The translations under genes and the position numbers were made by a program. A stretch of DNA of 43,511 bases, from the NCBI GenBank assembly GCA_043819135.1, contig JBDRFG010000146.1:1-43511 (forward strand). Reading direction: 5' to 3'. Shown piece after piece: positions 17,229 to 43,511 of the stretch. The DNA is from Candidatus Eiseniibacteriota bacterium (GTDB taxonomy: Bacteria > Joyebacterota > Joyebacteria > Joyebacterales > Joyebacteraceae). Position 1 is the first letter of the stretch, and each line of letters starts with the position of its first letter. Under the pieces are notes generated by a model. The model made no database searches, was not told where the DNA came from, and saw only the letters and a program-made list of their open reading frames with translations.

Positions 17229-17319
17229 CTCCTGCCCATCTCAGAAGCTGTAAAATGCGAGACTTGGGCAGGGCTTGTCTGGTGATCCGACGCGTGGATC
17301 ACCGCCCCACCAGTCTTGC

Positions 17320-17411: not shown

Positions 17412-17450
17412 TTGACCACGTTCCGGCCAGCTAGTAGCTTCTTGCTGGCC
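17412..17450 (+). promoter_or_regulatory. Sigma70-like promoter overlapped by an inverted repeat
   Basis: TTGACC (17412-17), 17-nt spacer, TAGCTT (17435-40). The GGCCAGC/GCTGGCC inverted repeat (17425-31 / 17444-50) brackets the -10 element. Confidence 0.4.
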
Positions 17451-18594: not shown

Positions 18595-18660
18595 GCGCCA
18601 TCAGCATCGCTGCCGCAGGAGACGTCGAACCAGGGAACGGCTGGTGTACTCGGGGGTGAA

Positions 18661-20910: not shown

Positions 20911-20917
20911 TAAGAGC

Positions 20918-22102: not shown

Positions 22103-22105
22103 CCG

Positions 22106-22873: not shown

Positions 22874-22906
22874 CCGGCTCGGCAACAGTAGCGGAAGGGG
22901 TCCCAC

Positions 22907-23266: not shown

Positions 23267-23284
23267 TGTCCTGGGTTCCGTGGA

Positions 23285-23372
23285 GGGGGACGCACCCGTC
23301 CCCCGACTCGTGAAGAGTGGTGTCGTTTCGGTCCCGGTGACCCGGAGAGGAGACATCGCTTCGGTCCCGGTG
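23285..23372. repeat. Intergenic hairpin plus 17-bp direct repeat
   Basis: GGGGGACG-CACC-CGTCCCCC (23285-23304); TCGTTTCGGTCCCGGTG (23323-39) and TCGCTTCGGTCCCGGTG (23356-72) are 16/17 identical with a 33-bp period. Confidence 0.7.
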
Positions 23373-23382
23373 GAGGAACTCG

Positions 23383-26702: not shown

Positions 26703-28714
26703 GAACGATGACCGCGCTCGTGCTGATTGCCGTTGTGACACTGGGAACCGCCATACCCTCGTCAGGATACGAGGTCGTGTCGGGGCACCCGAGACTCTTC
26801 GTGACGTCGGCCGACGTCGCCGCCCTGAGGGCCAAGTGCCAGGGGCCGATGGCGTTCGACTACTCGATATCGAAGAACTGGGCGGACGACCACATGAGCG
26901 ACCCTCTTCCGCTCGGCAGCATCGACGCCTACCAGCACTATCTGGCGACCTACAGCTTCAACTACCTCATCACGGGAAACGTCGCGTACGCCGCCAGGGC
27001 CAAGGTCATCGCGCAGAGCGCCATGGGCCAGGGGCTGCAAGGCCAGGGCATGTACAACACCGGTCTCTCCCTGTTCTTCGACTGGTGCTACGACTATCTC
27101 ACCTCCGCCGAGCGGCAGACGTTCGGTTGGGAGCTGGGGGAGAGCGGCCTGGCCGCCGCCGCCGGAGTCAACTGGGTGGAAACGAACAACTACCACTCGA
27201 AAGTCTCAAGACTCATAGGCCTCATATACCCCGGCCTTCCGCTCTACGGCGAGGGTATCCACGACACGGCCGCGACCACTCTCTGCGACCTGTATCAGGA
27301 ACACACGTTCGGCCCCGACTACGTCATCGCCTGCCTCGATGAGATAGCGGGGGACGGGTCGTACTACGAGGGCGGCTACACGCTTTCCGTGGTCGGGGAG
27401 TCGTTTGTTCAGGGCTGCCTGCTGTGGAAGGTGGCCACAGGAGAGAACGCGTTCGCGCAATCGGGCAACCTCCAGAACATGGCCGATTACCTCATCTACG
27501 AAGTATTCGCAAAGAACGGGCTGGGCGGCGGAGCACTCATGAGCGGGTCGAAGCAGGGCGACACGGGGAGCCACACGTGGGGAGCGGCCTCGCTCAGGCG
27601 GGTTCTTCACTCGCTCGCCGCCGTGTACGACGACCCCGTCGCCGAGTGGCTGGGGCTCGAGATAGACAGGCTGGGGCTCGGGTACATCAACAGGAACGAG
27701 CGTTGGAAGCTGCTGGTCCTGCGCGACCCGTCGGTCGGCGAGCAGCCGCCCACCGGGATGCCGGACACGCGGTTCTTCCACGATATGGGCACCGTCTACA
27801 TGCGTTCCGGGTGGGACTACTCGGAGAACAGCAACGACGTCTACGCCGTGTTCCGATGCGAGGCCATGAACGCCGGGCACACGAACGCGCACCAGAATCA
27901 TATCCTCATCGCCCGGGGCTACGACCTCCTGGCCCTGGATTCCGGCATCTACGACGGAGGGACGTCATCGCATCACGTCAACTACTTCAGCCGCACGGTG
28001 GCCCACAACACCATCACGGTCCACGACCCGTCCGAGACGACGTTCGGCTCGTACGCCAATGACGGCGGACAGATAATGCCCAAGGAGCTCCCGACGCGCT
28101 TCGGGGACGCATCCACGCCTGAGTACTACCGCGGCGAGGTCGAGTCGTTCAAGGACACGGACGCCTTCACCTATATGAAGGGCGACGCCACCGCGGCCTA
28201 CTCCGCGGCGAAGGTCGATCTCTTCACCCGCGAGATCGTCTACCTCAAGCCCGACGTGTTCGTGGTCCTGGACCGGGTCGAGGCGACGTCATCCTCGTTC
28301 ACGAAGCGCTGGCTGCTTCATTCCGTGAACCAGCCGACAATCAGCGGGAACACCGCCACGATAACGCGCGGCGTCTCGAAGCTTGTCGTCACCTCGGTTC
28401 TTCCTGCCAACGCCGGCATTACCCGGGTCGGAGGGGTCGGACATGAGTTCGACGTCAACGGGACGAACTACCCGCCGGCCGCGGGCTGGACGGAAGACAT
28501 GGGCGGGTGGCGGCTCGAGATCACGCCGGGAACCGGCGCCGCCGACCACGTTTTCCTGACTGTTCTCTGCGTCGCGGGTGCCAGTGAGGCCACGCCGGAC
28601 GTCAGTCTGGTCGAGGGCGACGAGATGGTTGGAGTCCAGGTGGGCGGGCAGGTCGTTCTGTTCAGCGCGACCGGGGCCGCGGTAGAGGAGGCCTCGTACG
28701 AGTACGGCGAGTAG
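26699..28714 (+). CDS. Secreted heparinase II/III-like polysaccharide lyase
   Basis: Signal peptide, HPRLF start, helical N-domain with FFDWCYD and DGSYYEG..Y; beta C-domain with G.VYMRSGW, GH...QNH, LA.DSG.Y, RTVAHNTITV, MKGDATAAY and VVLDRV. Confidence 0.82.
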   Translation: MRTMTALVLIAVVTLGTAIPSSGYEVVSGHPRLFVTSADVAALRAKCQGPMAFDYSISKNWADDHMSDPLPLGSIDAYQHYLATYSFNYLITGNVAYAARAKVIAQSAMGQGLQGQGMYNTGLSLFFDWCYDYLTSAERQTFGWELGESGLAAAAGVNWVETNNYHSKVSRLIGLIYPGLPLYGEGIHDTAATTLCDLYQEHTFGPDYVIACLDEIAGDGSYYEGGYTLSVVGESFVQGCLLWKVATGENAFAQSGNLQNMADYLIYEVFAKNGLGGGALMSGSKQGDTGSHTWGAASLRRVLHSLAAVYDDPVAEWLGLEIDRLGLGYINRNERWKLLVLRDPSVGEQPPTGMPDTRFFHDMGTVYMRSGWDYSENSNDVYAVFRCEAMNAGHTNAHQNHILIARGYDLLALDSGIYDGGTSSHHVNYFSRTVAHNTITVHDPSETTFGSYANDGGQIMPKELPTRFGDASTPEYYRGEVESFKDTDAFTYMKGDATAAYSAAKVDLFTREIVYLKPDVFVVLDRVEATSSSFTKRWLLHSVNQPTISGNTATITRGVSKLVVTSVLPANAGITRVGGVGHEFDVNGTNYPPAAGWTEDMGGWRLEITPGTGAADHVFLTVLCVAGASEATPDVSLVEGDEMVGVQVGGQVVLFSATGAAVEEASYEYGE

Positions 28715-28733
28715 CCGTGTAGGAGCTGGCGCC

Positions 28734-29828
28734 ATGCGGATCTGCTTTCTCGCAGACGCAGGATCGGTGAACACGAGAAGCTGGGTCAACGCCTTCGCCG
28801 AGGACCTCGGTCACGACGTACACGTTGTGTCCGTGAATCGGGTGGGTGAGATGGCGCCTTCGGTCACGCTTCATCACCTGGGAACGGACTCGGGCACGCA
28901 GGATACTCTGGGAAAGCTCGCGTATCTCAGGAGCGTCAGGCGCATACGCCGGATCGTCACCGAGATATCGCCGGACATTCTCGTGGGCTATCGCGTCGCG
29001 AGCTACGGCTACGTGGGGGCCAGGACAGGCTTCCGCCCGCTGGTGGTCGTGGCGCAGGGCGAGCACATCATCACGCCCAGGCGCTCACTTCCCAAGCGGA
29101 TATTCGCGATGACGGCCATACGGGAGGCAAGCCTCCTTCACTCGTGGGCGCCACACGTGACGGACAGGCTCGTCGAGCTGGGCGCGGACCCGGACCGGAT
29201 CCTGACCTGTCACCGCGGTATCGACATCGCCCGCTTCTCACCGGCGGACGAGCACGAGAGGGTCCCGGCCTCGGTGATCGTTACCAGGAATCTGTGCCGG
29301 TGGTACAAGATCGACGTCATCGTCAGAGCGCTGGCCCTGGCCAGGCAAGAGGTCGGTGGGATCACCGGGACGCTGGCGGGCGACGGGGAAGGGGAGCAGG
29401 AACTCCGGGAGCTGACCGGCGAGCTGGGGCTGTCCGACGTCGTCAGGTTCATTGGGCGAGTGCCGCACGACGAACTGCCCGGGCTGCTTCGCCGAAGTTC
29501 CATCTACGCGTCCGCCGTCCGAACCGACGGCGTCTCGGCGTCGCTCCTCGAGGCGATGGCGACCGGGTGTTTCCCCGTGGTCCGCGACAACGCGGCCAAC
29601 CGCTACTGGGTCGAGAATGGACGGAACGGGTTCCTTGTGAAGGGCGAGGACCCCGCCGCGTATGCGGAGGCCATCGTCGCGGCCAGCAGGGGCGACGGAC
29701 TCAGGTCGGAGGCGGCGCGCCTCAATCGGGACATCGTTGCCGAGCGTGCGGACTCTGCCAGGAACATGCGAACGATAGAGCGGGCGTACCTGGCCCTGAT
29801 CAGCGGGGAGCGAGAGTGGGAACCTTAG
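28734..29828 (+). CDS. GT4-family glycosyltransferase
   Basis: MRICFLAD, GIDIARF and DGVSASLLEAMATG.FPVV (D in place of the first E of EX7E). Confidence 0.9.
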   Translation: MRICFLADAGSVNTRSWVNAFAEDLGHDVHVVSVNRVGEMAPSVTLHHLGTDSGTQDTLGKLAYLRSVRRIRRIVTEISPDILVGYRVASYGYVGARTGFRPLVVVAQGEHIITPRRSLPKRIFAMTAIREASLLHSWAPHVTDRLVELGADPDRILTCHRGIDIARFSPADEHERVPASVIVTRNLCRWYKIDVIVRALALARQEVGGITGTLAGDGEGEQELRELTGELGLSDVVRFIGRVPHDELPGLLRRSSIYASAVRTDGVSASLLEAMATGCFPVVRDNAANRYWVENGRNGFLVKGEDPAAYAEAIVAASRGDGLRSEAARLNRDIVAERADSARNMRTIERAYLALISGEREWEP

Positions 29829-29831
29829 AAG

Positions 29832-31388
29832 ATGAGAGATAGGACGTACCTTCGCTGGGGCGGAGGGGGCACCAACGCGACCGGGGTGGCAAGCGTGTAT
29901 ACCCTAGAAGAGAGGCTCTATCTGCAGAGCCCGACGTTCGTCCAGAATGCTCTGGTCTCCCACCGAGGCCGGAGGCTTCTGCGTGAGCGCTTCGGGCCCG
30001 AATACGACCGGTGGGACCGATTCTTCCGTGAGTCCGAGCGGCTCGATGCCGCGGGGCTCAGGCGGTATCAGGAAGAGCGCCTTCGTGCGGTCGTCGCGCA
30101 CGCGTATGAGACCGTTCCGTACTACCGCAAGCTGATGGACGGGCTCAAGCTCAGGCCCTCCGACCTGACGCGCGTCGAGGATCTCCCCAAGCTGCCCGTC
30201 CTGACGAAGGACGTCATACGAGCGAATCTGGAAGACATGGTCTCGAGCACCGTCGACCGCCGGCACGTCAGGAAGGTCTTCACGTCCGGGACGACCGGAG
30301 ACGCGGTCGATTTCTATTGGGACCAAGTTGTCGACGTCGTCAACAACGCGTGTCTGTGGCGCGGCAGACGCTGGGCCGGGTTCGAGTTCGGCCAGCCCTA
30401 CGCGACGCTTCTCGGCAAGCTGATCATGGCGCCGGAGCGGAAGCGCCCGCCGTTCTGGCGATTCAATCGCAGCTGGAACCAGATGCTGATGTCGTCGCAT
30501 CACCTGGCCCCCGAGAACCTCCCGAGCTACATCGGAGCACTCAGGGACGCGGGAGTGGTGGCGCTCGACGCCTACCCCTCGATGGCCGTTGTGCTCGCGC
30601 GGTACCTCGAGAGCGTCGGGGAGCACCTTCCGCTCAAATGCGTCTTCACGACCGCCGAGCCTCTCCACGAGCCCGACAGGGAGGTGCTCGCCGAGCGGTT
30701 CCAGTGCGGTGTCTTCGACGGTTACAGCCAGGCCGAGCGCGTCGTCTACTCCGCCGAGTGCGACCATCACCGGGGTCACCACCTCTTCGAGGAATACGGC
30801 ATCTGCGAGATAGTCGACGGAGAAGGGACCCCCGTTGAGCCCGGCACCCCGGGGCGGCTGGTGGGCACCGGTCTGCACAACATGGCCATGCCTCTCCTGC
30901 GGTACGACGTGGGCGACGTCGCCTCGCTTTCCACGGATGTCTGCACGTGCGGCCGCGGTCTTCCCCTGATGGGACTGATCGCAACGAGGCAGGGCGACAT
31001 CATCAGCACGCCGGACGGACGCCTGCTTCCACCTCTGATGATCCTGCGACCGTTCATGTATGTCGAGGGCATCAAGGCGTCTCAGTTCGTTCAGCACACG
31101 CTCACCGACTACACGGCGAGGATAGAGACCGACCGGGCGCTGTCGAACGAAGAGGTCGACGAACTGGTCCGCAACCTGTGTGTCAGGCTTGGGCGGACCG
31201 TGAACATCAAGGTCGAACGCGTGGACGACATCCCGCGCTCGGCGAATCAGAAATTCAGAAGAGTGGTCTCGGAGGTTCCGCTGAGCTGGGCGGAACCCGC
31301 CTCCGCCGACTCGCTGCGCCGCAGTGGGGCCGCCGGCCGAGCTGAAGATGGGGAAGACGCGGGCCGCACCGACGGGGAGGGCGCCTGA
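29832..31388 (+). CDS. Phenylacetate-CoA ligase-like adenylate-forming protein (CapK-like)
   Basis: HAYETVPYYR, LP.LTK, TSGTTG, YPS, DGYSQAE, AMPLLRYDVGD and CTCGRGLP. Start may lie slightly downstream. Confidence 0.88.
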   Translation: MRDRTYLRWGGGGTNATGVASVYTLEERLYLQSPTFVQNALVSHRGRRLLRERFGPEYDRWDRFFRESERLDAAGLRRYQEERLRAVVAHAYETVPYYRKLMDGLKLRPSDLTRVEDLPKLPVLTKDVIRANLEDMVSSTVDRRHVRKVFTSGTTGDAVDFYWDQVVDVVNNACLWRGRRWAGFEFGQPYATLLGKLIMAPERKRPPFWRFNRSWNQMLMSSHHLAPENLPSYIGALRDAGVVALDAYPSMAVVLARYLESVGEHLPLKCVFTTAEPLHEPDREVLAERFQCGVFDGYSQAERVVYSAECDHHRGHHLFEEYGICEIVDGEGTPVEPGTPGRLVGTGLHNMAMPLLRYDVGDVASLSTDVCTCGRGLPLMGLIATRQGDIISTPDGRLLPPLMILRPFMYVEGIKASQFVQHTLTDYTARIETDRALSNEEVDELVRNLCVRLGRTVNIKVERVDDIPRSANQKFRRVVSEVPLSWAEPASADSLRRSGAAGRAEDGEDAGRTDGEGA

Positions 31389-33775
31389 TGGCGAAGGTCC
31401 TGCACGTCGTCGAGTCGATGAAGGCCGGAGGCGCTGAGCGCGTCGTGGTCGAGTACGCGAAGTGGCACGACCGCTCTCGCTACGAGCCCGAGGTCTGCTG
31501 CGTGCTTTCGTCCGGCCCCTTCGCCGACTCGGTCGCCTCCTCGGGCGTTCCCGTTCACGTGCTCGGCCGCAAGAGCAGATTCGACCTCGGCGCCATCTTC
31601 AGACTGGCCCGGATCGTTCGGCGCGGTCGCTTCGACGTCGTCCATAACCACAACTTCGCCGCGCTGGCGGCGGGGTTGCCGGCGTCGGTTCTCGGCAGGG
31701 CGAGAGCGGTGATCCGCACCGAACACAACGTCCTGCGCACGCGGGGACCGGCCAGGCACTACGTGAGCCGCGCGGCCGCTCTCAGGGAGGATGCGCAGAT
31801 AGCGGTGTCTGACGCCGTCAGGCGCGCGCACACTGACTGCGGACGGATCAGACCGGGGAGATTCGTCACCGTGCTGAACGGAGTCGACGAGGAGCGTCTT
31901 GCCCCGAGCGCCGACCGAGCGTCGGTGCGGCGGCAACTCGGGCTGCCGGACGACGCGGTCGTCTGCCTGAACGTCGGGAGTCTCACGGAACAGAAGAACC
32001 GGCGCACTCTCCTGGACGCGGCGGCGCGGCTGACCGACATCGACGAACTGAGGTTGCTGGTGGTCGGTTCGGGTCCGGAGGAAGAGGAACTCAGGGGGCG
32101 CGTGAATGAGCTCGGGCTGTCAGGACGGGTCCTGCTCCTCGGGCAGCGCCTGGACGTTCCCGATCTGCTGGCCGCATCGGACATCTTCGTGCTCTCCTCC
32201 GACTGGGAGGGGCTGCCGATCACGATCCTCGAGGCGATGGCAGCGGGAGTGCCCTGTGTGGCGACGGCCGTCGGCGGAGTCCCCGAGGCGCTTACCGACG
32301 GCGTGAACGGTCTGACCGTCGAGCCCGGCGATCCCGAGGCGCTGGCATATGGGCTGCGCCGCCTCGCGGGGGACGCGGATCTGCGCGCTCGCCTGGCGGG
32401 CGCTGCCCGCGACGAGTTCGAGCGCAGGTTCAGGGCGAGCCAGATGGTCCGACAGACCGAGGCCCTGTACGACATGGCGCTTTCCGGCCGAGCGGCCCTC
32501 GCGTCTGCGGGGAGGATCAAGATCCTCTACGTCATCGGCCAGCTGGGCCGCGGAGGCGCGGAGCGGCAGACGTCCGAACTCGTCAGGCGTCTTCCCCGCG
32601 ACGTGTTCGAGCCGGTCGTGTGCTGCCTGCACGGATCGGACGTGCTCGGCGACGAGATGGAGGACGCCGGCGTGCGGGTGATCTACCTGGGGAAGAAGGG
32701 AGGGATTTTCTCCGGCACCACGCTCAGGCTCGCCGACATCATCAGGCGCGAGCGGCCCGCGGTGCTGCACTCGTATCTCTTCTCCGCGAACTGGAGGAGT
32801 CTTCTCGCCGGCAGGCTGGCGCGCGTCCCGTTCATCATCTCGTCGGTGCGAAACGTGGACATCCACTCACAGTCTGCGACCGTCGCTATCGAATGGCTGC
32901 TTGCCGGCCTGACCGACCGTGTGATAGCGAACGCGGAGGCCGTGAAGGACCACGTGTCGAGACGTCATCTGATACCCGCCGAGAAGATACACGTCGTCTA
33001 CAACGGCGTTGCGCTCGAGCGGGCGGAAGGACGCACGAGAGGCGGAGCCTCCTCCGAGACCGGGGGAGCCAACGCCGGCGACGGGGTCTCGGACCGGGGG
33101 GGTCGCGTCGCGATGATCGCGAGCCTGACCCCCAAGAAGGACCACGGCACGTTCCTCGAAGCAGTGCGCTTGATCACGCGGGACGCGCCGGACGCCCGGT
33201 TTCTGATCGTGGGAGACGGCGCTCTGCGCGACGAGCTGACCGACCGCGTGACATCCATGGGGCTTTCTGACGTGGTCGAGCTGACCGGCGCCCGGGACGA
33301 CATCGGCGTCATCCTCTCCGAGATCGATGTTTCCGTGCTGACGTCGCTCAAGGAAGGGTGCTCGAACGTGGTGCTGGAATCGATGGCGGCCGCCCGTCCG
33401 GTCGTCGTCACCGACGTCGGCGGCAACAGAGAACTCATCGAGAACGGGGTGACCGGATACATCGTCCCCGCCGGCGACGCGGCGGGAATCGCTCGCCACG
33501 TGTTGGAGCTTCTGGGAGACCCGGATCTCAGACAGAGAATGGGCGCGGCGGGCCGGACCCGTGTGCGGTCGAGGTTCACGGCCGACAGAATGGTGGACGA
33601 CACAGTCGCGTTCTATCTGTCCGTTCTCGGGAAGAGGGCGGCGGGCCTTGAGGCGTGGGTGCGCGTCACCTCGGAGCGGGAGCAGCACAGCTCGGGCAAG
33701 GCCGCAGGAACACGCCGTGCGGACGACCCGACGCGACCGCAAGCAACCGAAGGAGAGGTACCGACTACACCATGA
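31388..33775 (+). CDS. Tandem double GT4 glycosyltransferase
   Basis: Two complete GT-B units, each with GGAER, NGV and an EX7E motif (EGLPITILEAMA; EGCSNVVLESMA), in one 795-aa ORF. Confidence 0.92.
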   Translation: MAKVLHVVESMKAGGAERVVVEYAKWHDRSRYEPEVCCVLSSGPFADSVASSGVPVHVLGRKSRFDLGAIFRLARIVRRGRFDVVHNHNFAALAAGLPASVLGRARAVIRTEHNVLRTRGPARHYVSRAAALREDAQIAVSDAVRRAHTDCGRIRPGRFVTVLNGVDEERLAPSADRASVRRQLGLPDDAVVCLNVGSLTEQKNRRTLLDAAARLTDIDELRLLVVGSGPEEEELRGRVNELGLSGRVLLLGQRLDVPDLLAASDIFVLSSDWEGLPITILEAMAAGVPCVATAVGGVPEALTDGVNGLTVEPGDPEALAYGLRRLAGDADLRARLAGAARDEFERRFRASQMVRQTEALYDMALSGRAALASAGRIKILYVIGQLGRGGAERQTSELVRRLPRDVFEPVVCCLHGSDVLGDEMEDAGVRVIYLGKKGGIFSGTTLRLADIIRRERPAVLHSYLFSANWRSLLAGRLARVPFIISSVRNVDIHSQSATVAIEWLLAGLTDRVIANAEAVKDHVSRRHLIPAEKIHVVYNGVALERAEGRTRGGASSETGGANAGDGVSDRGGRVAMIASLTPKKDHGTFLEAVRLITRDAPDARFLIVGDGALRDELTDRVTSMGLSDVVELTGARDDIGVILSEIDVSVLTSLKEGCSNVVLESMAAARPVVVTDVGGNRELIENGVTGYIVPAGDAAGIARHVLELLGDPDLRQRMGAAGRTRVRSRFTADRMVDDTVAFYLSVLGKRAAGLEAWVRVTSEREQHSSGKAAGTRRADDPTRPQATEGEVPTTP

Positions 33776-34917
33776 GTGGGAAGAGCAACAGAGGCAACGG
33801 ATTCGACGGCCTGGCGAGGCGCATGGGACTGGGCATCAGGAACTCCGGACTGGTCGTTCGGGGAGTGGCCGGTGTCCACCGCGTCGGCGGGACCGTTCTG
33901 CGGTACCACTCCATCAGCGACGACCATGCGTGGGCCTTGGACTATGTGCAGAAGAGCCTCGTGGTCACGCCGGAGCTTTTCGAGCGACAGGTGGCCTTCC
34001 TGACGAAGAGATACAGGGTCGTGAACATAGGGGAGATGGCTGGGCAGATGCGTTCCCGCGGCGGCGTGGACCCCGGAAGTGTGGCGATCACGTTCGACGA
34101 CGGGTACGAGGACAACTACAGGTGCGCGTTCCCGATTCTCAGGAAGCACGGCGCGACGGCCACCTTCTACATTACGACAGGCACGGTGGCCGATGCCCGG
34201 ATTCTGTGGACGGTGGGCCTGAGGCGGGCGATCAGATCGTGCGACAGACCGACCGTATCGCTGTCGTTCCTGGGGGAGCGGAGCGTCGATCTTTCCACCG
34301 ACGCGCGGAGGGAAGCCACGATCAAGATGATCACCAGCATCGGGAAGCGCTGCAAGGTCGAAGAGCTGGAGGACATCCTCGCGGAGGTTCACGAGGAGAC
34401 CGGTCACGGCCCGCAAGCGGCGCCGCTGCCCAGACGGGTCATGATGAACTGGGACGAGATCAGAGAGATGCACGGCGCCGGCATGACGATAGGCGCGCAC
34501 ACGCACTCCCACTACAACCTGCCCAGCCTTGACACCAGTGACGTCGCGCACGAGGTCGTCGCCTCGCGCAGAGCCGTCGAGGAGGAGCTGCAGGCGCCGG
34601 TCGAGCACTTCGCCTATCCGAACGGCAGGACGGACCGCCATTGCGATGCCCGGGTCGCGAAGGTAGTCGCGGTGGCCGGGTTCGGGTCTGCGGTCACTTC
34701 TCTGGCCGGGCCGGTGTCCGGCAGGTTCTCGCCATACTGCATCCCGCGAATGGGTGTGGCACCCAGGCACGGGGACCTCGCGAGGCTTGCGGCGGACATG
34801 CAGTACTCGAAATTCAGACATCAGGACCGGCACGTCGTGGATGAGATAACAAGGGTCCTTCCCGCGCGAGTACGCGGCTTCGGGGCGAATAGCTCGTTCC
34901 ACGCTAACTCGGTTTGA
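33772..34917 (+). CDS. Polysaccharide deacetylase (CE4/NodB family)
   Basis: LRYHSI, ITFDDGY.DN, MNWDEIREM, IGAHTHSH..L and FAYPNG; ATGA overlap with the upstream gene. Confidence 0.92.
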   Translation: MSGKSNRGNGFDGLARRMGLGIRNSGLVVRGVAGVHRVGGTVLRYHSISDDHAWALDYVQKSLVVTPELFERQVAFLTKRYRVVNIGEMAGQMRSRGGVDPGSVAITFDDGYEDNYRCAFPILRKHGATATFYITTGTVADARILWTVGLRRAIRSCDRPTVSLSFLGERSVDLSTDARREATIKMITSIGKRCKVEELEDILAEVHEETGHGPQAAPLPRRVMMNWDEIREMHGAGMTIGAHTHSHYNLPSLDTSDVAHEVVASRRAVEEELQAPVEHFAYPNGRTDRHCDARVAKVVAVAGFGSAVTSLAGPVSGRFSPYCIPRMGVAPRHGDLARLAADMQYSKFRHQDRHVVDEITRVLPARVRGFGANSSFHANSV

Positions 34918-34941
34918 GGGTCGACGGAGCCCGGAGGTCGG

Positions 34942-36147
34942 TTGGGTCGTGTCAACGCACATAGAGACGGGACTCCCGCGAAGCTCGTGCTGTGGGCCGG
35001 TTCGTTCGAACCCGCCGGGACCCAGCGATTCCTGGTCGAGCTTCTGAGAAGAATGGACCGGAGCAAGTTCGCGCCCATCGTGTTCTCGACGCTGGCCGAG
35101 GGCGAGCTTCTGCCGGAGGTGGAGGCCATGGGCGTTCCCGTACACGAATTCGGGACGGATCGACGCGCGCTGTCTCCGCAGACCTTCAGAGACCTGTCGG
35201 GGGCCGCCGCGTTCCTGCGTCGCGAGAAGGTCGACATCCTGAGTTGCATGCTGGGCCTGACGACGCTCGTGGGTCCGTTCGTGGGACGGGCCGCCGGTGT
35301 TCCCGTGGTCGTGAACAACCAGCGGAACATGAGCTACTGGCTCAGAGGCGGCATCAGGGAGTCGGTCTACGGTTTCGTGAGCAGGCGTGTGGTCGACGCC
35401 ATCGTCGTCAACAGCGCAGCCGCCGCGAAGGAGCTGACGGGGCGGTTCCGGGTGCCGGAATCGAAGATAGAAAATGTCGGCGTGGGGACGGACCTCGAGA
35501 AGATCGCCCGGGCCGAGCCGAACGAGGCGCTCAGACGGGAGCTGGGCCTCGGTGGTGGCAAGGTGGTCGGTGTTGTGGCGAAGCTCTCGCCGGTGAAGGG
35601 CCACGACCACTTCCTGGAGGCGGCCGCGTTCGTCTCCAGGGCCTACGGGAACGTGCGCTTCCTGATCGTCGGCGACGGGCCCGAGCGGACGCGCCTTGAG
35701 CGGACGGCCGGCGAACTCGGGATCTCGGACAGGGTCCACTTCCTCGGCGTGCGGGACGACGTGCCCGCGGTGCTCAAGCTGATGGACGTGCTCGTGCTCT
35801 CGTCGCTGTCCGAGGGTTCTCCGAACGTTGTGCTGGAAGGCATGGCGTCCGGCGTTCCGATTGTCGGGACGGCCGTGGGCGGGGTTCCTGAGCTCGTCGA
35901 GGACGGGGTGTCGGGCCTGCTAGTCGACCCCGGAGACGCTCCCGCGATGTCGAACGCCGTGCTTGCGCTGCTTACGGACCCGGACCGCGCGCGGGCGATG
36001 GGTGAGAAGGGTCGAACGACGGCCGCCGAGAACTACGACATCAACCGGGTGGTCGCGCGCACCGAGGACGTGTTCTCGAGTCTCCTGGAGTGTGCCCGCG
36101 GACGGCGCGGGGACGGGTCGGGAGAGCGAATTGGAGGAGGGGCATGA
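34942..36147 (+). CDS. GT4-family glycosyltransferase
   Basis: AGTQR, VKGH..FL.AA, SEGSPNVVLEGMA.G.P.VGTAVGG. Start (TTG) uncertain. Confidence 0.9.
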   Translation: MGRVNAHRDGTPAKLVLWAGSFEPAGTQRFLVELLRRMDRSKFAPIVFSTLAEGELLPEVEAMGVPVHEFGTDRRALSPQTFRDLSGAAAFLRREKVDILSCMLGLTTLVGPFVGRAAGVPVVVNNQRNMSYWLRGGIRESVYGFVSRRVVDAIVVNSAAAAKELTGRFRVPESKIENVGVGTDLEKIARAEPNEALRRELGLGGGKVVGVVAKLSPVKGHDHFLEAAAFVSRAYGNVRFLIVGDGPERTRLERTAGELGISDRVHFLGVRDDVPAVLKLMDVLVLSSLSEGSPNVVLEGMASGVPIVGTAVGGVPELVEDGVSGLLVDPGDAPAMSNAVLALLTDPDRARAMGEKGRTTAAENYDINRVVARTEDVFSSLLECARGRRGDGSGERIGGGA

Positions 36148-38057
36148 GGATCCTGTTCCTCACACAGTACTACCCTCCCGAGACGGGCGCCGCTCCTCTC
36201 AGGGCCTATCACTTCGCGGCCAAGCTTGCCAAGCAGGGCCACGAGGTGACGGTCCTGACCGGCATGCCGAACCACCCCGGCGGCAGGAAGCACCAGGCGT
36301 TCCGGTGGAAGCTGGGCACGTCGTCAACGCAGGACGGTGTCCGTGTCGTAAGAAGCTACCTCTACGCGACGCCGCGAAAGACGTTCGCGACCCGCATGCT
36401 CAATCAGCTTTCGTTCGCCGTGACCGCACTCGTGCGTGGGTGCTGCGTGCCGGCGTGCGACGTCATCCTCATCACCTCGCCGCCACTCTTCCTCGGGATC
36501 TCCGGCTGGCTCCTGGGCCACCTCAAGGGCGCTCCCTACGTGCTCGACGTCCGGGATTACTGGCCGCACGCCGCGGTCGCGCTCGGGCAGCTGAGATCGA
36601 AGCGCGTCATACGGCTCGCGGAGCGAATGGAGCTCTTCCTCTACGCGCATGCCGCCTGGATCGTCGCGGTAACGCCGGGAATGCGCCGCCTGATGGTCAA
36701 GCGGGGTATCCCCGGACATCGCATCGTGCTGATCCCTAACGGCGCCGACACCGATTGCTTCACGCCGGCGGAGAACGGCGATGCCCACGGCGACGGCAAC
36801 GGGGGATGGACCGTTCTCTACAGCGGCACTCACGGCCTGGTGCATGGCATGGGAATGATCCTTGACGCGGCGGAGAGGCTGCTCGATGACGAGAGGATCC
36901 ACTTCGTCATGGTTGGCGACGGCGTCGCCAAGGATGCGCTCGTTGCCGACGCCAAGCGCCGCGAGCTGCACAACATCGAGTTCCTGCCCAGCCAGCAGCC
37001 CGAGCGCCTGGCCGAGAGAATACGGACTTCGGACGTCTGCCTGGCGACCACGACAGGGGGCACCTTCAGCGAGGGGACCGTGCCGGTCAAGATGTTCGAC
37101 TATATGGCCTGCGGGAAGCCCGTGGTGGCCGCCGTGGCCGGGGACGCGCGGACGATACTGGCGGAAGCCGACTGTGGCGTCGTCGTGGCCCCGGGGGACT
37201 CCGCCGCACTGGCCTCGGCGCTGATCAGACTCCTGGAGGACAAGGCGGAGCAGGAGCGCCTCGGGAAGAACGGGTACGAGTTTGTCAGGTGGAGCTACTC
37301 GCGCCAGCATCTTGCCGGCAGAATGAACGACCTCCTGGAGCGAGTGGTCGGCCGCGAGCGCAGTCTCGGAGGAGGACGCCTGGGGTTCAGGCGCTACCTG
37401 ACGGTCAAGTACCTCATCGACGCGCTCGTCGCCTCGCTCTCGCTCATAGTGATGTCTCCCGTCCTCGCGCTGACCGCGATCCTGGTGAGACTGGACTCGC
37501 CGGGTCCGATCATCTACCGGCAGCGGCGCACAGGGATCTACTCACAGGAGTTCACCATCTACAAGTTCCGGACGATGCACGTGCACACGCCGGAGCTTGC
37601 GACCGATCTCATGGAGCCTACCATCCACGACTACACGACCAGGATCGGGCGCCTGCTCCGAAGACTCAGTATCGACGAACTGCCCAACCTGTGGAACATA
37701 CTCGTGGGAGACATGAGCATCGTCGGGCCGAGGCCCGCGCTGTACAACCAGTACGGGCTCATCGATGAACGCCGCAAGGTCGGAGGCGACGTCATGCGGC
37801 CCGGACTGACGGGGTGGGCGCAGATCAACGGACGTGACAGTATCACTCAGGCCGAGAAAGTGCGGCTGGACGAGTTCTACTCGCGCAACTGCTCGCTCGC
37901 GCTCGACCTGGGGATCGTGCTCGGCACGCTCAAGACCGTGTCCCGCACGGAGGACGTGAGCGACGGACAGCCGGCGGACTCGAAGCACGCACGGGCGGCA
38001 GCGGATTCACCGGACGAACGCCCGGCGACGGACCTGGAACAAGGAGGGGAGGAGTGA
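36144..38057 (+). CDS. Fusion: WbuB-like GT4 + monotopic phosphoglycosyl transferase (PglC/WcaJ-type sugar transferase domain)
   Basis: N-part LTQYYPPE.GA, DVRDYWP, YSGTHG..HG, P.KMFDYMACGKP; C-part KYLID, LDSPGP..YRQ.R.G, YKFRTM, SIDELPNLWN...GDMS.VGPRP, PGLTGWAQINGR. Confidence 0.92.
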   Translation: MRILFLTQYYPPETGAAPLRAYHFAAKLAKQGHEVTVLTGMPNHPGGRKHQAFRWKLGTSSTQDGVRVVRSYLYATPRKTFATRMLNQLSFAVTALVRGCCVPACDVILITSPPLFLGISGWLLGHLKGAPYVLDVRDYWPHAAVALGQLRSKRVIRLAERMELFLYAHAAWIVAVTPGMRRLMVKRGIPGHRIVLIPNGADTDCFTPAENGDAHGDGNGGWTVLYSGTHGLVHGMGMILDAAERLLDDERIHFVMVGDGVAKDALVADAKRRELHNIEFLPSQQPERLAERIRTSDVCLATTTGGTFSEGTVPVKMFDYMACGKPVVAAVAGDARTILAEADCGVVVAPGDSAALASALIRLLEDKAEQERLGKNGYEFVRWSYSRQHLAGRMNDLLERVVGRERSLGGGRLGFRRYLTVKYLIDALVASLSLIVMSPVLALTAILVRLDSPGPIIYRQRRTGIYSQEFTIYKFRTMHVHTPELATDLMEPTIHDYTTRIGRLLRRLSIDELPNLWNILVGDMSIVGPRPALYNQYGLIDERRKVGGDVMRPGLTGWAQINGRDSITQAEKVRLDEFYSRNCSLALDLGIVLGTLKTVSRTEDVSDGQPADSKHARAAADSPDERPATDLEQGGEE

Positions 38058-38941
38058 CGACGAATCTCCCTGTGAAAGCCAACGGTCCCGGGGACGACGG
38101 AGGGCGTTATCCGGGGGGCATCGTGGGCGTCGTTGCGGTCGCCGCGCTCGTCGTTCTGGTCTATCACCAGACGTTCTCGATCCTGTGGCGAACCTGGAAC
38201 ACGAATCCGAACTACTCCCACGGATTCCTCATTCCTCCGGTGGTTGCCTTCCTGCTCTGGCGCGAGAGACGCCGGTACCTTACGGCCCGGGGGCGCGGGA
38301 GCATGTTCGGCCTCGTGCTGGTCGGACTGGCCCTCCTGGGTCACGTCGTATCGATCCGTGCGGGCGTCTTCATGACGCAGGGTTACTCGCTTGTCCTGAT
38401 GCTCTTCGGGCTTTCGCTCTTCCTTTGCGGCGGCAGGGCGACGCGGACCGTGTGGTTCCCGCTCGGCTACCTCGTCTTCATGCTTCCGATGCCGCCCTAT
38501 CTGATGAACGTCATCGCGTTCAGGCTCAAGATCTTCGCCGCCCGGGCCGGCAGTGGCGTTGCCATCCACCTGGGGATCCCGCTCGCCCGTTCCGGGATGA
38601 CCATACACATCCCGGCCGGGTCGCTCAGGATAGCCGACCCTTGCAGCGGGCTCCGCTCTCTCATCGCGCTCGTCGCGCTTGGGGCGCTCTTCGCGTTCCT
38701 CACCAAGGGGAAGACCTGGAAGCGTCTCGTGCTCTTCGCGTCGGCGGTGCCTCTGGCGGTTCTCGCGAACGTCGTCCGCATCTCGGTGCTGTGCGTGGTG
38801 GCCAACATCTGGGGAATCGACGCCGCGTTGGGGTTCTTTCACGACTTCTCGGGACTTCTGCTCTTCATGATCGCGTTCCTCGGTCTGGTCGTGGTCAGGA
38901 AGCTCCTGAGGTGTGAGACCGAGACAGAGGAGGCCGCATGA
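38054..38941 (+). CDS. Exosortase (EpsH/Xrt family)
   Basis: YSHGFLIP, F..PMP and the Cys-Arg-His triad in IADPCSGLRSL, ANVVRI and FFHDFSG; about 8 TM helices. Confidence 0.95.
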   Translation: MTTNLPVKANGPGDDGGRYPGGIVGVVAVAALVVLVYHQTFSILWRTWNTNPNYSHGFLIPPVVAFLLWRERRRYLTARGRGSMFGLVLVGLALLGHVVSIRAGVFMTQGYSLVLMLFGLSLFLCGGRATRTVWFPLGYLVFMLPMPPYLMNVIAFRLKIFAARAGSGVAIHLGIPLARSGMTIHIPAGSLRIADPCSGLRSLIALVALGALFAFLTKGKTWKRLVLFASAVPLAVLANVVRISVLCVVANIWGIDAALGFFHDFSGLLLFMIAFLGLVVVRKLLRCETETEEAA

Positions 38942-39576
38942 AGACACCCCTTCGCGTAGCGACAGTGCTGGTTCTCCTGGCCGCGACCGCGCTGTACGTG
39001 CGGCTCAACCCTCCTCGTCGTCTGGCGCTCAGCTCCGAGGCTCTCACGGCGTTCCCTACGGAGCTCAACTCGTGGCGCGGCGTCGACCTCGAATTCTCGG
39101 AGGTGGTTGCCGAGGAACTGGCCGCCGACGACACGCTTGCGCGGCGCTACATCGACGAGCATGGGAACTCGGTGTGGTTCGTCATCATATTCCATCAGAA
39201 CGAGCGCTACGGTGCACACGAGCCCGTCGTCTGCTACACGGCGCAGGGATGGAGCGTAGTGGACCGGGGTCTGACGCCGCTCTCCCGCCAGGGTGGGGGA
39301 TTCGATGCCAACTGGCTGCTCATAGAGGCGCGAGGTCAGAAGCGCGTGGCCGTCTACTGGTGGTACACGGCAGGAGATCTGGCGACGGGCGACAGAGACA
39401 CGTTCATGGCACGCATGGCGACGGCGGGCGTCAGGTCCAACGTGACGTTCGGAGCGTTCGTCCGCGTGTCCGTGGCGGTGGGAGACGGGGGCTTCGACGA
39501 GGCCCTGTCCGCCGCGCGTGGGTTCGCGGAAGAGGCGCTTCCGCACATACCCGAGCTGTTCTCAGAAGACGAGTAG
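38938..39576 (+). CDS. epsI: Exosortase-associated EpsI-family protein
   Basis: FP.....WRG.D, L.ADD.L.R.Y, HEPVVCYTAQGW, VYWWY and GAFVRVS; overlaps the exosortase stop. Confidence 0.9.
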   Translation: MKTPLRVATVLVLLAATALYVRLNPPRRLALSSEALTAFPTELNSWRGVDLEFSEVVAEELAADDTLARRYIDEHGNSVWFVIIFHQNERYGAHEPVVCYTAQGWSVVDRGLTPLSRQGGGFDANWLLIEARGQKRVAVYWWYTAGDLATGDRDTFMARMATAGVRSNVTFGAFVRVSVAVGDGGFDEALSAARGFAEEALPHIPELFSEDE

Positions 39577-39666: not shown

Positions 39667-40539
39667 ATGGGCGTGGTCCAGCAGTTCAATGCACTTATCT
39701 GGAGCTGGGCGGAGATGTTTCGTGCGCTCCGCAGAAGAACGGCTCTGGCGCCTTTTCTCATCTACGCGGGCGTTCAGACCGTCGTTCTGCTGATGCTGCT
39801 CGGCTTCACCATCCCCCCGCTCAGGCTCTTCGTACCGGCTCTTCTGCGCTGGAGATTCGGAGAGCAGGCGCTTCACTATCCCAACAACCTGTTGGCCCTG
39901 AGGGGCGCTCTCGGGCAGGCGGACCTTGTGTTGTCCGTGTTCCTCGGCGCGCTGGTGACAGCGGCGGCGGTGCACCTGTTCGCGTCCTTCTACATCAAGC
40001 AGAGGGCGCGCCTTTCGGCCGGACTTGCCGTCGGCAGGTCGAATTACGTGCCCGCCCTCGCGGTGGCGCTCATCGTCGCGGTGCTCTCACAGGTGGTTGT
40101 CCGCGTGCCGATGTCGATCTGGGGGGGACTTGCGGACTCAAGCCCCATGCGATTCAGACTGCTCCGCCTCCTGCTCATCGGTGTGGTCCTCGCCGTGCAG
40201 GCCATCTTCCTCTACGGCATCGTGGCCGTGGTCGTTGACGGCAAGCGGCTCGGGGCCGCTCTGGGGAGCACGGTAGCGATCGCCTCCCGCAACCCCGTGA
40301 CGACACTGCTCTTGGTCGCGGTTCCGGCGGCGCTCGAGTTGCTACCCGCCTGGCTCATGAGGAACAGCTCGGTGATCATCTACAGGTTCTCTCCCGAGTT
40401 TCTGGTGGTGGGCATGTTCCTCTGGATAGTCGTCATTCTGTTCATCAATTACGCGACGGTCGGAGCCGCTACCAGGTTCTACCTGCATGCCACGGCCAAC
40501 GAAGGGCCTTCCCCCGAGCCCGTGGAGGGACAACGATGA
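39667..40539 (+). CDS. Hypothetical integral membrane protein (about 6 TM)
   Basis: GGAGG RBS, 290 aa with multiple hydrophobic helices, stop overlaps the next start. No family recognised. Confidence 0.8.
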   Translation: MGVVQQFNALIWSWAEMFRALRRRTALAPFLIYAGVQTVVLLMLLGFTIPPLRLFVPALLRWRFGEQALHYPNNLLALRGALGQADLVLSVFLGALVTAAAVHLFASFYIKQRARLSAGLAVGRSNYVPALAVALIVAVLSQVVVRVPMSIWGGLADSSPMRFRLLRLLLIGVVLAVQAIFLYGIVAVVVDGKRLGAALGSTVAIASRNPVTTLLLVAVPAALELLPAWLMRNSSVIIYRFSPEFLVVGMFLWIVVILFINYATVGAATRFYLHATANEGPSPEPVEGQR

Positions 40540-42056
40540 ACGCTACCAGGACGCTGAAGAGGTGTCTGGTCTGCGCCCCGGTGCTCGCCGTCCTCGCGGG
40601 TTCTCTCGGATGCGGTGCTGAGCCGGGGCTTAGCGACAGATACGTGGCGGAGAAGCTGGCGTGGAAGGCGGCGAAGACCATCCACGCGATGCGGCTGAAT
40701 CCCGAGCTGGCGACCGATGAGATGAAGGCGCGCGTCGCCGACATCTACGGAGAGATAGTCGACAGGTTCCCGCCCCCGGATGACGCGTCGGTGCTGTCTC
40801 CGGCCGAGATGGATGTCGCGGCCATAGCGGCTCGAAGCGGAATGGCGCTCGCGCAGATCGCCGCGCAGGCCGGGGACACGGACGAGGCCATCCGTCTCTA
40901 CGCGTCGGTAAGTGACGGGTACTCCTACGACCGGGATCTCGTGGTCGAGTCGACCATTTCCATCGCAGAGATCAGAGAGCTGAGGGGTGAATGGGAGGAC
41001 GCAGCAGAGGCCTACGAGGCTCTCATGTCCGACTGGCCACCCGCCGGGCCCGAGACATCGATCCCCGACGTCCGGATCCTGCGCGCGCCGGTTAGAGTCG
41101 CCTCCGGTTACATCTCGCGCGGAGAAGAGAGCAACGGTCGCGAGTGGTTCGGGCGGGCAAGGGACTACTACGAGAGTTGTGTCGCGAAGTGGCCGGGCAG
41201 CCGGACGGCCGAGCTGGCGATGAGCTTCCGGGCCGAGACGTTCCTCATGGAGGAGCGCTGGGTCGACGCCGTGGCTGCCTACGAGGAGCTGGACCGCGAC
41301 TACGGCCGCGACGCGAATCGCCCGGGCATATGGCTGGTGCTCGCGGACACGTACGCCAACAAGCTGAATCGGAAGGCGGCCGCTCGGGGCTACTACCTGA
41401 GAGTCCTCGAGGGATACCCCGACGACATTGGCTCGGCAACCGCCGCGCTCGCGCTGGCGGAGACGGAGATCGAGAACGGCGAGCACGAGATCGCGAGGAC
41501 TCGCCTCGAGGACGTGGCCAAGAGGTTCCCCAGAGAAGAGGCCATCAGGGCCACGGCGATCCAGTATCTGGCAGTCAGCTACGAGAGCGAGGGACTCTGG
41601 GACAGTGCCGTGGCGCAGCTCAACGCCCTCGCGCGCGAGCACCCGACGACTCTCTACGGGTTCACCGCGCTTCAGCACATCGCGGAGCACTACGAGCAGG
41701 CGGGCGAGACGGGCGCCGCGGACGCTGCGCTCGAGAGGGCGGCCGATCACTACGAGCGAGTGGTCCGGGACTTCTCATCGACGCCCGCCGAGCTGGCGGC
41801 CCGGGGCTATCTCATAGACACGAGGCTCAGACAGGAGAGATGGGAGGACGCGGCCCGGACTCTGTTTGAGACGGGCGAGCGCTTCCCGAGGTCCGGATCT
41901 TCACCGGACATGATGATGCAGGCGGCCGATATCTACGAGAACAGGCTTTCGGACCGTGATGCGGCGACAGAAGTTCTCAGGTCCCTGATTGGCCTCTTCC
42001 CGGGTACGCGCGCCGCAACCGCTGCAGCGCGGCGTCTCGAGGAACTGGCGGAGTAG
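40536..42056 (+). CDS. TPR-repeat protein, probable lipoprotein
   Basis: Signal with LAGSLG-C; repeated A..Y..L...YP/WP/FP-type TPR units across the mature region. Confidence 0.85.
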   Translation: MNATRTLKRCLVCAPVLAVLAGSLGCGAEPGLSDRYVAEKLAWKAAKTIHAMRLNPELATDEMKARVADIYGEIVDRFPPPDDASVLSPAEMDVAAIAARSGMALAQIAAQAGDTDEAIRLYASVSDGYSYDRDLVVESTISIAEIRELRGEWEDAAEAYEALMSDWPPAGPETSIPDVRILRAPVRVASGYISRGEESNGREWFGRARDYYESCVAKWPGSRTAELAMSFRAETFLMEERWVDAVAAYEELDRDYGRDANRPGIWLVLADTYANKLNRKAAARGYYLRVLEGYPDDIGSATAALALAETEIENGEHEIARTRLEDVAKRFPREEAIRATAIQYLAVSYESEGLWDSAVAQLNALAREHPTTLYGFTALQHIAEHYEQAGETGAADAALERAADHYERVVRDFSSTPAELAARGYLIDTRLRQERWEDAARTLFETGERFPRSGSSPDMMMQAADIYENRLSDRDAATEVLRSLIGLFPGTRAATAAARRLEELAE

Positions 42057-42083: not shown

Positions 42084-43511
42084 ATGACCGTGCCCGAACA
42101 CACGACGATCCTGGCAGTCGAACGCGACCGCGCGATCAGCGCGCTCGTGTCGGATGCCCTCGTCGCCTGGCGTGGCGACCGCGGCGCTGGGGCGGGCACG
42201 GACGGAGCCGGAGTCCGCGACGGCGAGGCGGGCGCGTCCTGGTACGACGTTCACCGCGCCGACACGTCCGCGAGCGCCGTCGCCGCCATCGGGACCGTCC
42301 GTCCGGACGTCGTGGTGGTGGCCGCGGAGCTGGTTTTCGACGGGGGTGTGGGGGGCTGGCGGTCCATGCTCTTCGACGTCATTCGTGAGAGCGCAAAGCC
42401 AGCGAAGATAATAGTCATCGCAGACGGGGAGGACCGCGCGCTGGCGGCAGAGGCCATAGACCTCGGAGCGTTCGACTACTGTGTCGGTCCCGTCCGTGCA
42501 GGCGAGTTCTCGGTGCTTCTGCAAAGGGCGCTCCACATCAGGGAACTCGAGGCCGGTATGGAGGACCTGCCCGGCAGACTCTCCGGCGTCGAGCGCTTCG
42601 AAAATCTCGTGGGGAGCTGTGACGCCATGCGCTCGGTGTTCTCCGCGGTCCAGAAGGTCGCGGTGGCCGACGCCGGCGTTCTGCTCGTCGGCGAGTCCGG
42701 AACCGGCAGACAACTCATTGCTCGTGCCATCCACCATCTGAGCGCGCGACGCGATGGCCCGTTCGTCGTTGCGAATTCGGCGGGCGCGGCGCCTGAGCTC
42801 ATGGAACAGGTGGTCTTCGGCTGGAGGTCGGCGAGCGGGGGTGATACCTCAGGGCGCGTTGCGGGTCTGTTGGAGCAGGCCGACGGTGGCACGCTTCTTC
42901 TGGAGGGCGTGTGCAGTCTGCCCCAGTCGCTGCAGACGAGGCTGTCCGCTTTCCTCCGGGAGCGCGCCTCTCATCCCGATGTCCGAATAGTCGCAACCAC
43001 CGATCACCTGCCACGGTGCGGCCTGCCGGTGCCCGCCGGAGAGGGTTCTCCGGTGCTTCGGGAGGATCTGTACTACCGGCTTGGCGTGGTGACGATCGAA
43101 CTCCCGCCTCTCAGAGAGAGGGGAGAGGACATCGCGATCATGGCCCGCGCCTTTCTCGCGAAGTACTCCGCCGAGCACGGCCGGACGGTGTCGGGGTTCA
43201 GCCGGTCGGCGACGGGGTCCATGATGAGCCACGCGTGGCCGGGCAACATCGCGGAACTCGAGGCCCGCGTCCGGCGTGCCGTCATATTGTCGCGAGGCAG
43301 GCTTGTGAGTGCTGCCGACCTTGGGCTCAACGGGAACGGCCGGTCCGGTGAACGATCGCTCGCTGAAGCGAGGAGCAGACTGGAGCGCAGCATGGTGACC
43401 GACGCGCTGCTTCAGGCGGCCGGCAACGTCTCGATGGCCGCTCGCGCGATCGGTGTGAGCAGGCCCACGATGTACGACCTCATAAGGAAGCACGAACTGG
43501 ATCTTTCCGAG
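42084..43511 (+). CDS. PrsR/NtrC-like regulator (receiver-AAA+-Fis HTH) with degenerate catalytic motifs; 3' end beyond window
   Basis: Manual translation from ATG 42084 (GAGGAGG upstream) is open for 476 codons: GAFDY, LVGSCDAMR.VF, GESGTGR, IARAIH.LS.R..GPFV, ADGGTL, REDLYYRL.V..I.LPPLRER.EDI, WPGN..EL, GNVSMAARAIGVSRPTMYDLIRKH. Confidence 0.92.
   Translation, partial: MTVPEHTTILAVERDRAISALVSDALVAWRGDRGAGAGTDGAGVRDGEAGASWYDVHRADTSASAVAAIGTVRPDVVVVAAELVFDGGVGGWRSMLFDVIRESAKPAKIIVIADGEDRALAAEAIDLGAFDYCVGPVRAGEFSVLLQRALHIRELEAGMEDLPGRLSGVERFENLVGSCDAMRSVFSAVQKVAVADAGVLLVGESGTGRQLIARAIHHLSARRDGPFVVANSAGAAPELMEQVVFGWRSASGGDTSGRVAGLLEQADGGTLLLEGVCSLPQSLQTRLSAFLRERASHPDVRIVATTDHLPRCGLPVPAGEGSPVLREDLYYRLGVVTIELPPLRERGEDIAIMARAFLAKYSAEHGRTVSGFSRSATGSMMSHAWPGNIAELEARVRRAVILSRGRLVSAADLGLNGNGRSGERSLAEARSRLERSMVTDALLQAAGNVSMAARAIGVSRPTMYDLIRKHELDLSE

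Follow-up and report, generated by a model that had tools for sequence, protein, structure and literature searches.

Organization of the locus and motif state of the protein

The window, by which we mean the whole 43,511-nucleotide contig analyzed here (C146 of the source genome, G000), ends in a gene for a degenerate member of the PrsR family, named prsR* in what follows (Table 1). Its open reading frame is unterminated at the window end, where a 114-nucleotide overlap with contig C36 supplies seven further residues and the stop codon, giving a protein of 483 amino acids; contig C90 overlaps the start of the window, so that the contigs join. prsR* is the last of 19 co-oriented open reading frames that extend from 17464 to the contig end with gaps of no more than 116 nucleotides, constituting a 26-kb exopolysaccharide operon. 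Terminator scans returned four plus-strand candidates and eight in total, no more than in shuffled sequences, and no tRNA was found in the window. From C36 onward (L001) three surface-type proteins are encoded, the first with its own sigma70-like promoter, followed by a PEP-CTERM gene. Throughout the phylum, and also in distant relatives that have an intact PrsR, the 290-residue protein of the operon is kept. Elsewhere in the window, hgcA and hgcB of mercury methylation were recognized at 11266-12632; hgcA scored 410.7 (NCBIfam cut-off 275) and hgcB 102.4 (cut-off 99), and the cap-helix motif was seen.

Table 1. Coordinates of the prsR* operon, its promoter region and the domains of prsR* in the window
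Feature	Position	Strand	Remarks
sigma54 -24/-12 motif, upstream of boxes	17213..17228	+	also retained in genomes without prsR*
weak distal inverted PrsR box	17276..17292	-	strong in g3 and g5; borderline in g1; low in g2; absent in g4, g6 and g8
IHF-like site	17320..17332	-	one mismatch here; exact in 5 of 6 g1 genomes; other genera not above chance
proximal predicted PrsR box, 17 bp, TGTCGGGAATGGCAACA	17379..17395	+	centre about -60 to -62 from predicted sigma70 start
predicted sigma70-type promoter TTGACC-N17-TAGCTT	17412..17440	+	conserved in 28 of 28 promoters; under generic scanner threshold
wza-like export gene (RBS puts its start at 17593); wzc-like chain-length/kinase gene	17593..20910	+	first operon genes
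exopolysaccharide genes: epimerase, glycosyltransferases, ligase, deacetylase, priming transferase	20729..38057	+	
exosortase and EpsI	38054..39576	+	
conserved 290-aa protein, no Pfam/NCBIfam match	39667..40539	+	between epsI and TPR gene
506-aa TPR protein in PrsT position	40536..42056	+	41 bits against PrsT cut-off of 312
prsR*: degenerate PrsR (receiver, AAA+, Fis-type HTH), 483 aa	42084..43511	+	last 7 codons on contig C36
pseudo-receiver, aa 1-150	42084..42533	+	phosphorylation residues gone; dN/dS 0.38 in g1
AAA+ core	42606..43100	+	P-loop glycines retained; GAFTGA, Walker B pair, L2, sensor I gone; dN/dS 0.24
AAA+ lid	43104..43328	+	sensor II Arg gone; dN/dS 0.10
Fis-type HTH	43353..43499	+	recognition helix almost identical to D. 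vulgaris PrsR; dN/dS 0.04-0.12, five genera

In the receiver of prsR*, the acidic pocket reads VERD, alanine occupies the phospho-Asp column, and the Thr and Lys are gone. Walker A is GESGTGR (from 42690) and Walker B is LLLEGV (from 42894); the L1 loop has no GAFTGA (from 42816), the L2 segment is deleted, the sensor I Asn has become Asp and the sensor II Arg has become Ala, and the HTH carries IGVSRPTMYDL. The motifs that are missing are those described in the accessible part of PMC7175178 as required for sigma54 activation. Pfam recognized the sigma54-activator domain, the lid and the Fis HTH, with no receiver among the five of six families listed; the AlphaFold2 model (pLDDT 76.9) retained all three folds, with NtrX as the best structural match. 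A protein cluster atlas placed prsR* in generic NtrC-type clusters only, and a relative at 89% identity is labeled Candidatus Eisenbacteria. It is to be noted that an initial annotation, made from the letters of the window, had reported changes in the receiver, Walker A and B, GAFTGA, L2 and both sensors, along with an intact HTH and an unbroken frame behind a ribosome-binding site; all were found where it had placed them, the site being GAGGAGG at 42070-42076 and the frame continuing to the stop in C36.

Conservation, selection and descent

The phylum was represented in the genome set by 31 genomes of one family, divided into eight genera (g1-g8); it may correspond to the lineage VGIX01 (Ca. 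Effluviviacota; PMC11323493). Orthologues of prsR* were present in seven of the eight genera, amounting to 26 copies with that of the source genome, one of them truncated by a contig end, and the gene order was the same as far as the contigs reached. When the motifs were compared against an intact PrsR, the GAFTGA-like loop, the Walker B DE pair and the sensor I Asn were each found in none of the 26 copies, and the sensor II Arg in none of 25, the truncated copy being excluded. The P-loop glycines were retained, the Walker A residue being Lys in 7 copies and Arg in 19. The damage varied by genus, with the arginine-finger helix gone in g3 and the entire L1 region deleted in g5; the arginines of REDLYYRL, which had been listed as kept, are indeed retained in the source genome but gone in g3 and g5. 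No stop or frameshift was detected in the 26 orthologues. By sequence, then, the loss of the sigma54-activation motifs is real, and because the same degenerate state is common to 26 orthologues in seven of eight genera, both an assembly artefact and a private pseudogene were ruled out. With these motifs gone in all copies, the initial annotation was also right that prsR* should be unable to fire the sigma54 motif at 17213.

The receiver followed a pattern of its own. The acid-acid-Asp-Thr-Lys set was complete in every copy of g2, g3 and g5 (12 of 12) and in no other copy (0 of 14), and PrsK was encoded in exactly those 12 genomes (0 of the other 19), its gene lying directly upstream of prsR* and directly after the TPR gene, with the H, N and G boxes intact in all 12. 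The source genome has no prsK in that position and, at 92% completeness, gave no PrsK match near the family cut-off. In g1 the Thr and Lys are gone in all seven genomes; since four of the seven still have the phospho-Asp, its loss is recent. Intermediate states were also observed: the receiver of G013 (L172) is almost intact with PrsK absent, and protein P0005 retains both Walker motifs with GAFTGA and sensor II missing.

Selection was estimated for each domain as dN/dS by the Nei-Gojobori method, taking the mean of pairs; the pairs are non-independent and the values carry no significance test. In g1 (21 pairs), the values for receiver, AAA+ core, lid and HTH were 0.38, 0.24, 0.10 and 0.10. 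Comparison with an intact paralogue in the same four genomes gave 0.241 versus 0.041 for the core, 0.108 versus 0.087 for the lid and 0.075 versus 0.094 for the HTH; thus, the HTH and lid are constrained as in the intact paralogue, whereas the AAA+ core is relaxed. The HTH ranged from 0.04 to 0.12 in five genera and was invariant between G000 and G002. For the receiver, dN/dS was 0.16-0.17 where PrsK was present and 0.24-0.50 where it was not, reaching 0.38-0.50 in g1 and g8. Recent decay, which would leave orthologues with intact motifs and ratios near 1, is not what was seen, as none of the 26 orthologues is intact and the whole-gene ratio was 0.18-0.31, like that of the adjoining genes. The description of prsR* as a maintained pseudo-enzyme therefore stands, with the motifs absent in 26 of 26 orthologues and the HTH and lid under constraint.

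The best NCBIfam match of prsR* was PrsR (TIGR02915) at 317 bits, below the family cut-off of 502.6, and no intact PrsR above that cut-off was found in the 31 genomes. The best 150 matches were then taken from a profile search against 1.84 billion representatives; PrsR was the top NCBIfam family in all 41 of these that were scanned. A quick tree of 76 rows was built from 13 of the 26 orthologues, 56 of the 150 matches (a choice biased to degenerate proteins) and seven outgroups, in which the degenerate proteins of the phylum formed one clade among the PrsRs (SH-aLRT 100); the group with the outgroups excluded this clade, and its exact sister was weakly supported. The loci of the nearest intact PrsRs (L265 and L267; relatives of P0010) have the same order of sugar transferase-xrt-epsI-orf290-TPR-prsK-prsR, and the catalytic motifs were intact in all 11 loci checked around the nearest intact PrsRs; in L279 the downstream gene is present too, with no exosortase match. 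By tree and gene order prsR* is a PrsR orthologue, while its motifs place it outside PrsR as well as sigma54 activators, as these are defined by function. As a separate observation, 16 of the 56 selected matches (P0023, P0025, P0031, P0032, P0036, P0050, P0056, P0065 and others) have neither GAFTGA nor the Walker B pair yet lie outside the clade, most of them placed among intact PrsRs, and P0056 scored even above the PrsR cut-off. These 16 motor-less matches, drawn from a biased selection, indicate that PrsR degeneration may be recurrent; because of that bias no frequency can be given.

The predicted PrsR box and its promoter

The promoter of the export gene was readable in 28 cases, namely 27 plus G023, in which promoter and export gene lie on separate contigs. 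Each of the 28 has a sigma54 motif and, about 200 nucleotides downstream, TTGAC with a TA-initial hexamer 17-18 nucleotides later, the distance from the sigma54 motif to the -35 being 195-202 nucleotides in 26. The 17-nucleotide box ends 16-18 nucleotides before the -35 in 25 of the 28 promoters, a spacing held in six genera, and never overlaps the -35, the -10 or the start. With a matrix trained by leaving one genus out, 25 of 28 promoters had their best forward match 33-35 nucleotides ahead of the -35, and 24 of these matches exceeded the shuffled 95th percentile. The stretch 17375-17399, which had been singled out in the initial annotation, contains this conserved box. Both boxes, proximal and distal, lie downstream of the sigma54 motif, and a sigma54 motif downstream of the box was found in none of the 28 promoters. 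The -10 of the predicted sigma70 promoter matches at only three of six positions, and the promoter went unrecognized in a generic scan.

The three other promoters (G012, G018, G023) had no box match above the shuffled 95th percentile, and in these same genomes the TPR gene directly adjoins the next gene, prsR* having been cleanly deleted; their -35 and -10 are the same, with no strengthening visible. On an RpoB tree of 29 of the 31 genomes, the deletions represent two separate loss events, and the probability of losing box and gene together by coincidence was about 0.005 by a rough branch-length estimate that rests on those two events. The best HTH match in G023 belonged to an unrelated intact activator. 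Over the 31 genomes, gene and box occur together in 24 and neither occurs in three; in one (G045) the box is present and the prsR* locus is missing from the assembly, two have the gene with the promoter unrecovered (G003 and G013), and one has lost the cluster. The sigma54 motif (17213-17320 region) was retained in every genome read, including G006 (98% complete), where a search for the cluster gave none; downstream of the motif lies a hairpin (z -2.6). Since the motif is kept in four genomes that lack prsR*, another factor must serve it.

Two further elements lie between the sigma54 motif and the proximal box. The site at 17320..17332 was recognized by the IHF consensus; a phylum-wide IHF site was rejected, support being confined to g1. 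Restriction of the distal box to the genera with PrsK was likewise ruled out, as a weak copy occurs in g1 and a low score was obtained in g2.

The matrix trained on this phylum was also applied to distant replicons. In 50 kb of D. vulgaris plasmid it found eight sites of at least 13 bits, where shuffled sequences gave 0.4 on average and at most 3, and six of the eight were among the site rows listed for DVUA0057 (PrsR) in the PMC4641369 supplement, of which 30 of 39 places were covered; one published site was identical to the g4 box. It is to be noted that the published sites are themselves predictions on DAP-chip targets. DVUA0057 is PrsR in the table of Haft et al. (PMC1569441), and its recognition helix differs from that of prsR* at few positions, although another sheet of the PMC4641369 supplement gives a different HTH under the same name. 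The PEP-CTERM targets of DVUA0057 were enriched by DAP-chip, and the 2011 paper states that no motif was validated (PMC3333781, accessible part). In g3 the boxes that the matrix describes often end in TTTACA, as does motif 1 (17 nucleotides) in Haft et al. (PMC1569441). Applied to a Vibrio plasmid, it picked a box 72 nucleotides before a sigma54 motif at a PEP-CTERM gene, which is the canonical layout; four of the other five matches of at least 13 bits were intragenic.

Within the source genome, the matrix scan revealed one outstanding site, the proximal box, which is itself in the training set; the next match (C11:9099) scored 20.3 bits. A genome-wide pattern search found no second site with a box-like core common to several genera. 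Among 54 regions lying upstream of PEP-CTERM genes (of about 100 such genes), a sigma70-like promoter was read in 33, a sigma54 motif in one and the box in one. On the reading of these 54 regions the PEP-CTERM genes have left the predicted regulon of prsR*, which appears to be reduced to one promoter, and the operon of that single promoter probably includes prsR* itself. The source genome encodes RpoN and, besides prsR*, 11 enhancer-binding proteins, of which 10 carry a GAFTGA-like loop; it also has three PEP-CTERM genes and six GGDEF matches. The HTHs of eight aligned enhancer-binding paralogues are 16-31% identical. A second enhancer-binding protein without a GAFTGA-like loop, L011 (G000:C170), retains Walker A, Walker B and sensor II.

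Proposed role and relation to known regulators

We consider it about an even call that prsR* is an ATPase-dead PrsR turned sigma70 regulator that activates from a class I position, and we are rather confident that it acts through the predicted box at 17379-17395 of the exopolysaccharide promoter. ATP hydrolysis and sigma54 contact would have been lost before the genera diverged, as the state of all 26 copies suggests, while the HTH would still bind the PrsR box, at one promoter, which is predicted to be of sigma70 type and serves the exopolysaccharide/exosortase operon. From this box, 60-62 nucleotides upstream of a predicted transcription start near 17447, prsR* would act as a class I activator that recruits the housekeeping RNA polymerase. 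The binding position of such activators is -61.5 (PMC10853779), and the sign of the ancestral PrsR is positive (PMC9012009), as far as the accessible parts of these papers go; class I activation is therefore proposed since the box centre at -60 to -62 fits, the -10 is weak and activation would preserve the ancestral sign. In g2, g3 and g5, prsR* would be controlled through phosphorylation by PrsK; in the source genome, because kinase and phospho-site are gone, it might be always on or, more speculatively, gated by a nucleotide at the retained P-loop. Counting against activation, the promoter escaped the generic scan, and a -35 and -10 unchanged without prsR* would also fit a repressor or weak modulator. 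Furthermore, the conserved upstream sigma54 site is not accounted for by this reading.

The same box could instead serve repression, either by blocking the contact region of the alpha subunit or by setting a roadblock or loop, made up of the distal box, the IHF-like site and the proximal box, in the way of sigma54 transcripts, and with prsR* last in its operon this would amount to negative feedback. Such a role, which we regard as possible though rather unlikely, draws on the placement of both boxes downstream of the sigma54 motif, the nearly fixed distance of that motif to the -35, and the unchanged promoter where gene and box are lost; there are precedents in NtrX, which represses (PMC6158489), and in Caulobacter NtrC (bioRxiv 10.1101/2023.06.06.543975) and FleQ (PMC3424551), which each repress and activate. 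Against it, the box is never on the -35, -10 or start and its 16-18 nucleotide spacing is held in six genera, the sign of the PrsK signal would need inversion, and no distal box exists in g4 and g8. That prsR* joins an intact enhancer-binding protein in a mixed ring at the sigma54 promoter, either targeting it to DNA or acting as a dominant negative, is very improbable: the source genome has RpoN and 10 enhancer-binding proteins with a GAFTGA-like loop, and the boxes and IHF-like site resemble a downstream enhancer, but intact PrsR was found in none of the 31 genomes, the ring-forming elements were destroyed differently (arginine-finger helix in g3, L1 region in g5), and the sigma54 site persists in four genomes without prsR*. 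Also very improbable is a slowly decaying, functionless relic whose box is inherited or bound by another factor, as might be read from the stepwise loss of kinase, receiver and finally gene and from the high receiver ratios in g1 and g8; it is opposed by 26 orthologues free of stops and frameshifts, by whole-gene ratios like those of the neighbors, by an HTH invariant between G000 and G002 and by a box that vanishes where the gene does. Regarding the three roles offered in the initial annotation, the sigma70 regulator is thus the best supported and the repressor keeps its lesser probability, whereas the dominant-negative partner is unsupported because no PrsR above the family cut-off was found in the 31 genomes and the HTHs of the eight aligned paralogues are 16-31% identical; an intact PrsR paralogue, of the kind that it had proposed to look for, was found in none of the 31.

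Taking the sigma70 activator as the preferred reading, we tentatively suggest, at somewhat less than even confidence, that the phylum preserves stages of a sigma54-to-sigma70 handover: loss of the motor would have left a PrsK-controlled class I activator at the old enhancer box, several genera would then have lost kinase and phospho-site, making it a signal-blind or nucleotide-gated, self-amplifying activator, and it would twice have been deleted with its box. Other branches of the tree also carry PrsR-like proteins with no motor, which suggests that the handover recurs. The few sigma70-type enhancer-binding proteins have been termed a possible evolutionary link between the sigma classes (PMC6158489, accessible text), and prsR* adds to such a case its closest relatives with intact motifs, states in between, a DNA site that can be named and genomes that are natural knockouts. 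How such an activator changes its sigma factor could be tested in E. coli with a single protein and a promoter of 200 bp. The results also suggest that annotation as PrsR is no guarantee of sigma54 control of exopolysaccharide or PEP-CTERM genes.

Among known systems, prsR* resembles PrsR itself (TIGR02915; Haft et al. 2006, PMC1569441; DVUA0057) in the HTH recognition helix, the 17-nucleotide box, the linkage to exosortase, EpsI and a TPR gene, and the PrsK of 12 relatives; D. vulgaris PrsR also has an exopolysaccharide export operon among its targets. It differs from PrsR in having no GAFTGA, Walker B pair or sensors I and II, and in that the canonical box lies about 63 nucleotides upstream of a sigma54 promoter at PEP-CTERM genes, whereas that of prsR* precedes a predicted sigma70-type promoter. 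As described in the accessible text of PMC9012009 and PMC9850573, canonical PrsK-PrsR controls PEP-CTERM genes and not polysaccharide synthesis. Our search, which excluded most subscription journals, found no paper with both 'PrsR' and 'GAFTGA' or on a degenerate PrsR. Nevertheless, the 'undescribed regulatory system' of the initial annotation was overstated, because prsR* is a PrsR orthologue and sigma70 regulators with no GAFTGA and a defective Walker B are a described class (PMC6158489, accessible text).

By its three retained folds, lost GAFTGA and non-consensus Walker motifs, prsR* belongs by sequence to this atypical sigma70-type class, and by analogy it would work like its activators, above all VpsR of Vibrio cholerae. 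The two share the receiver-AAA+-HTH architecture, the missing GAFTGA and Walker B consensus and, as predicted for prsR*, a sigma70 exopolysaccharide promoter with a proximal and a distal site (PMC6158489), at 22% identity by structural alignment; VpsR, however, occupies the class II position from -31 to -53 and depends on c-di-GMP (PMC6158489), in contrast to the predicted box of prsR* at about -61. NtrX, Caulobacter and Rhodobacter NtrC, TyrR, PhhR and HupR have likewise lost the sigma54 loop and kept DNA binding, as prsR* probably has. Caulobacter NtrC needs its Walker motifs and phospho-site (bioRxiv 10.1101/2023.06.06.543975), whereas all prsR* copies have lost Walker B and both sensors, and 14 of the 26 have neither an intact receiver nor a kinase. 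FleQ at the pel promoter (PMC3424551) is similar, as far as predicted for prsR*, in its two boxes, sigma70 exopolysaccharide promoter and sigma54-free action, but its ATPase works, its GAFTGA is kept, and the box through which it represses overlaps the start site. Overall, prsR* would be a variant of the known route by which sigma54 activators are rewired to sigma70 promoters.
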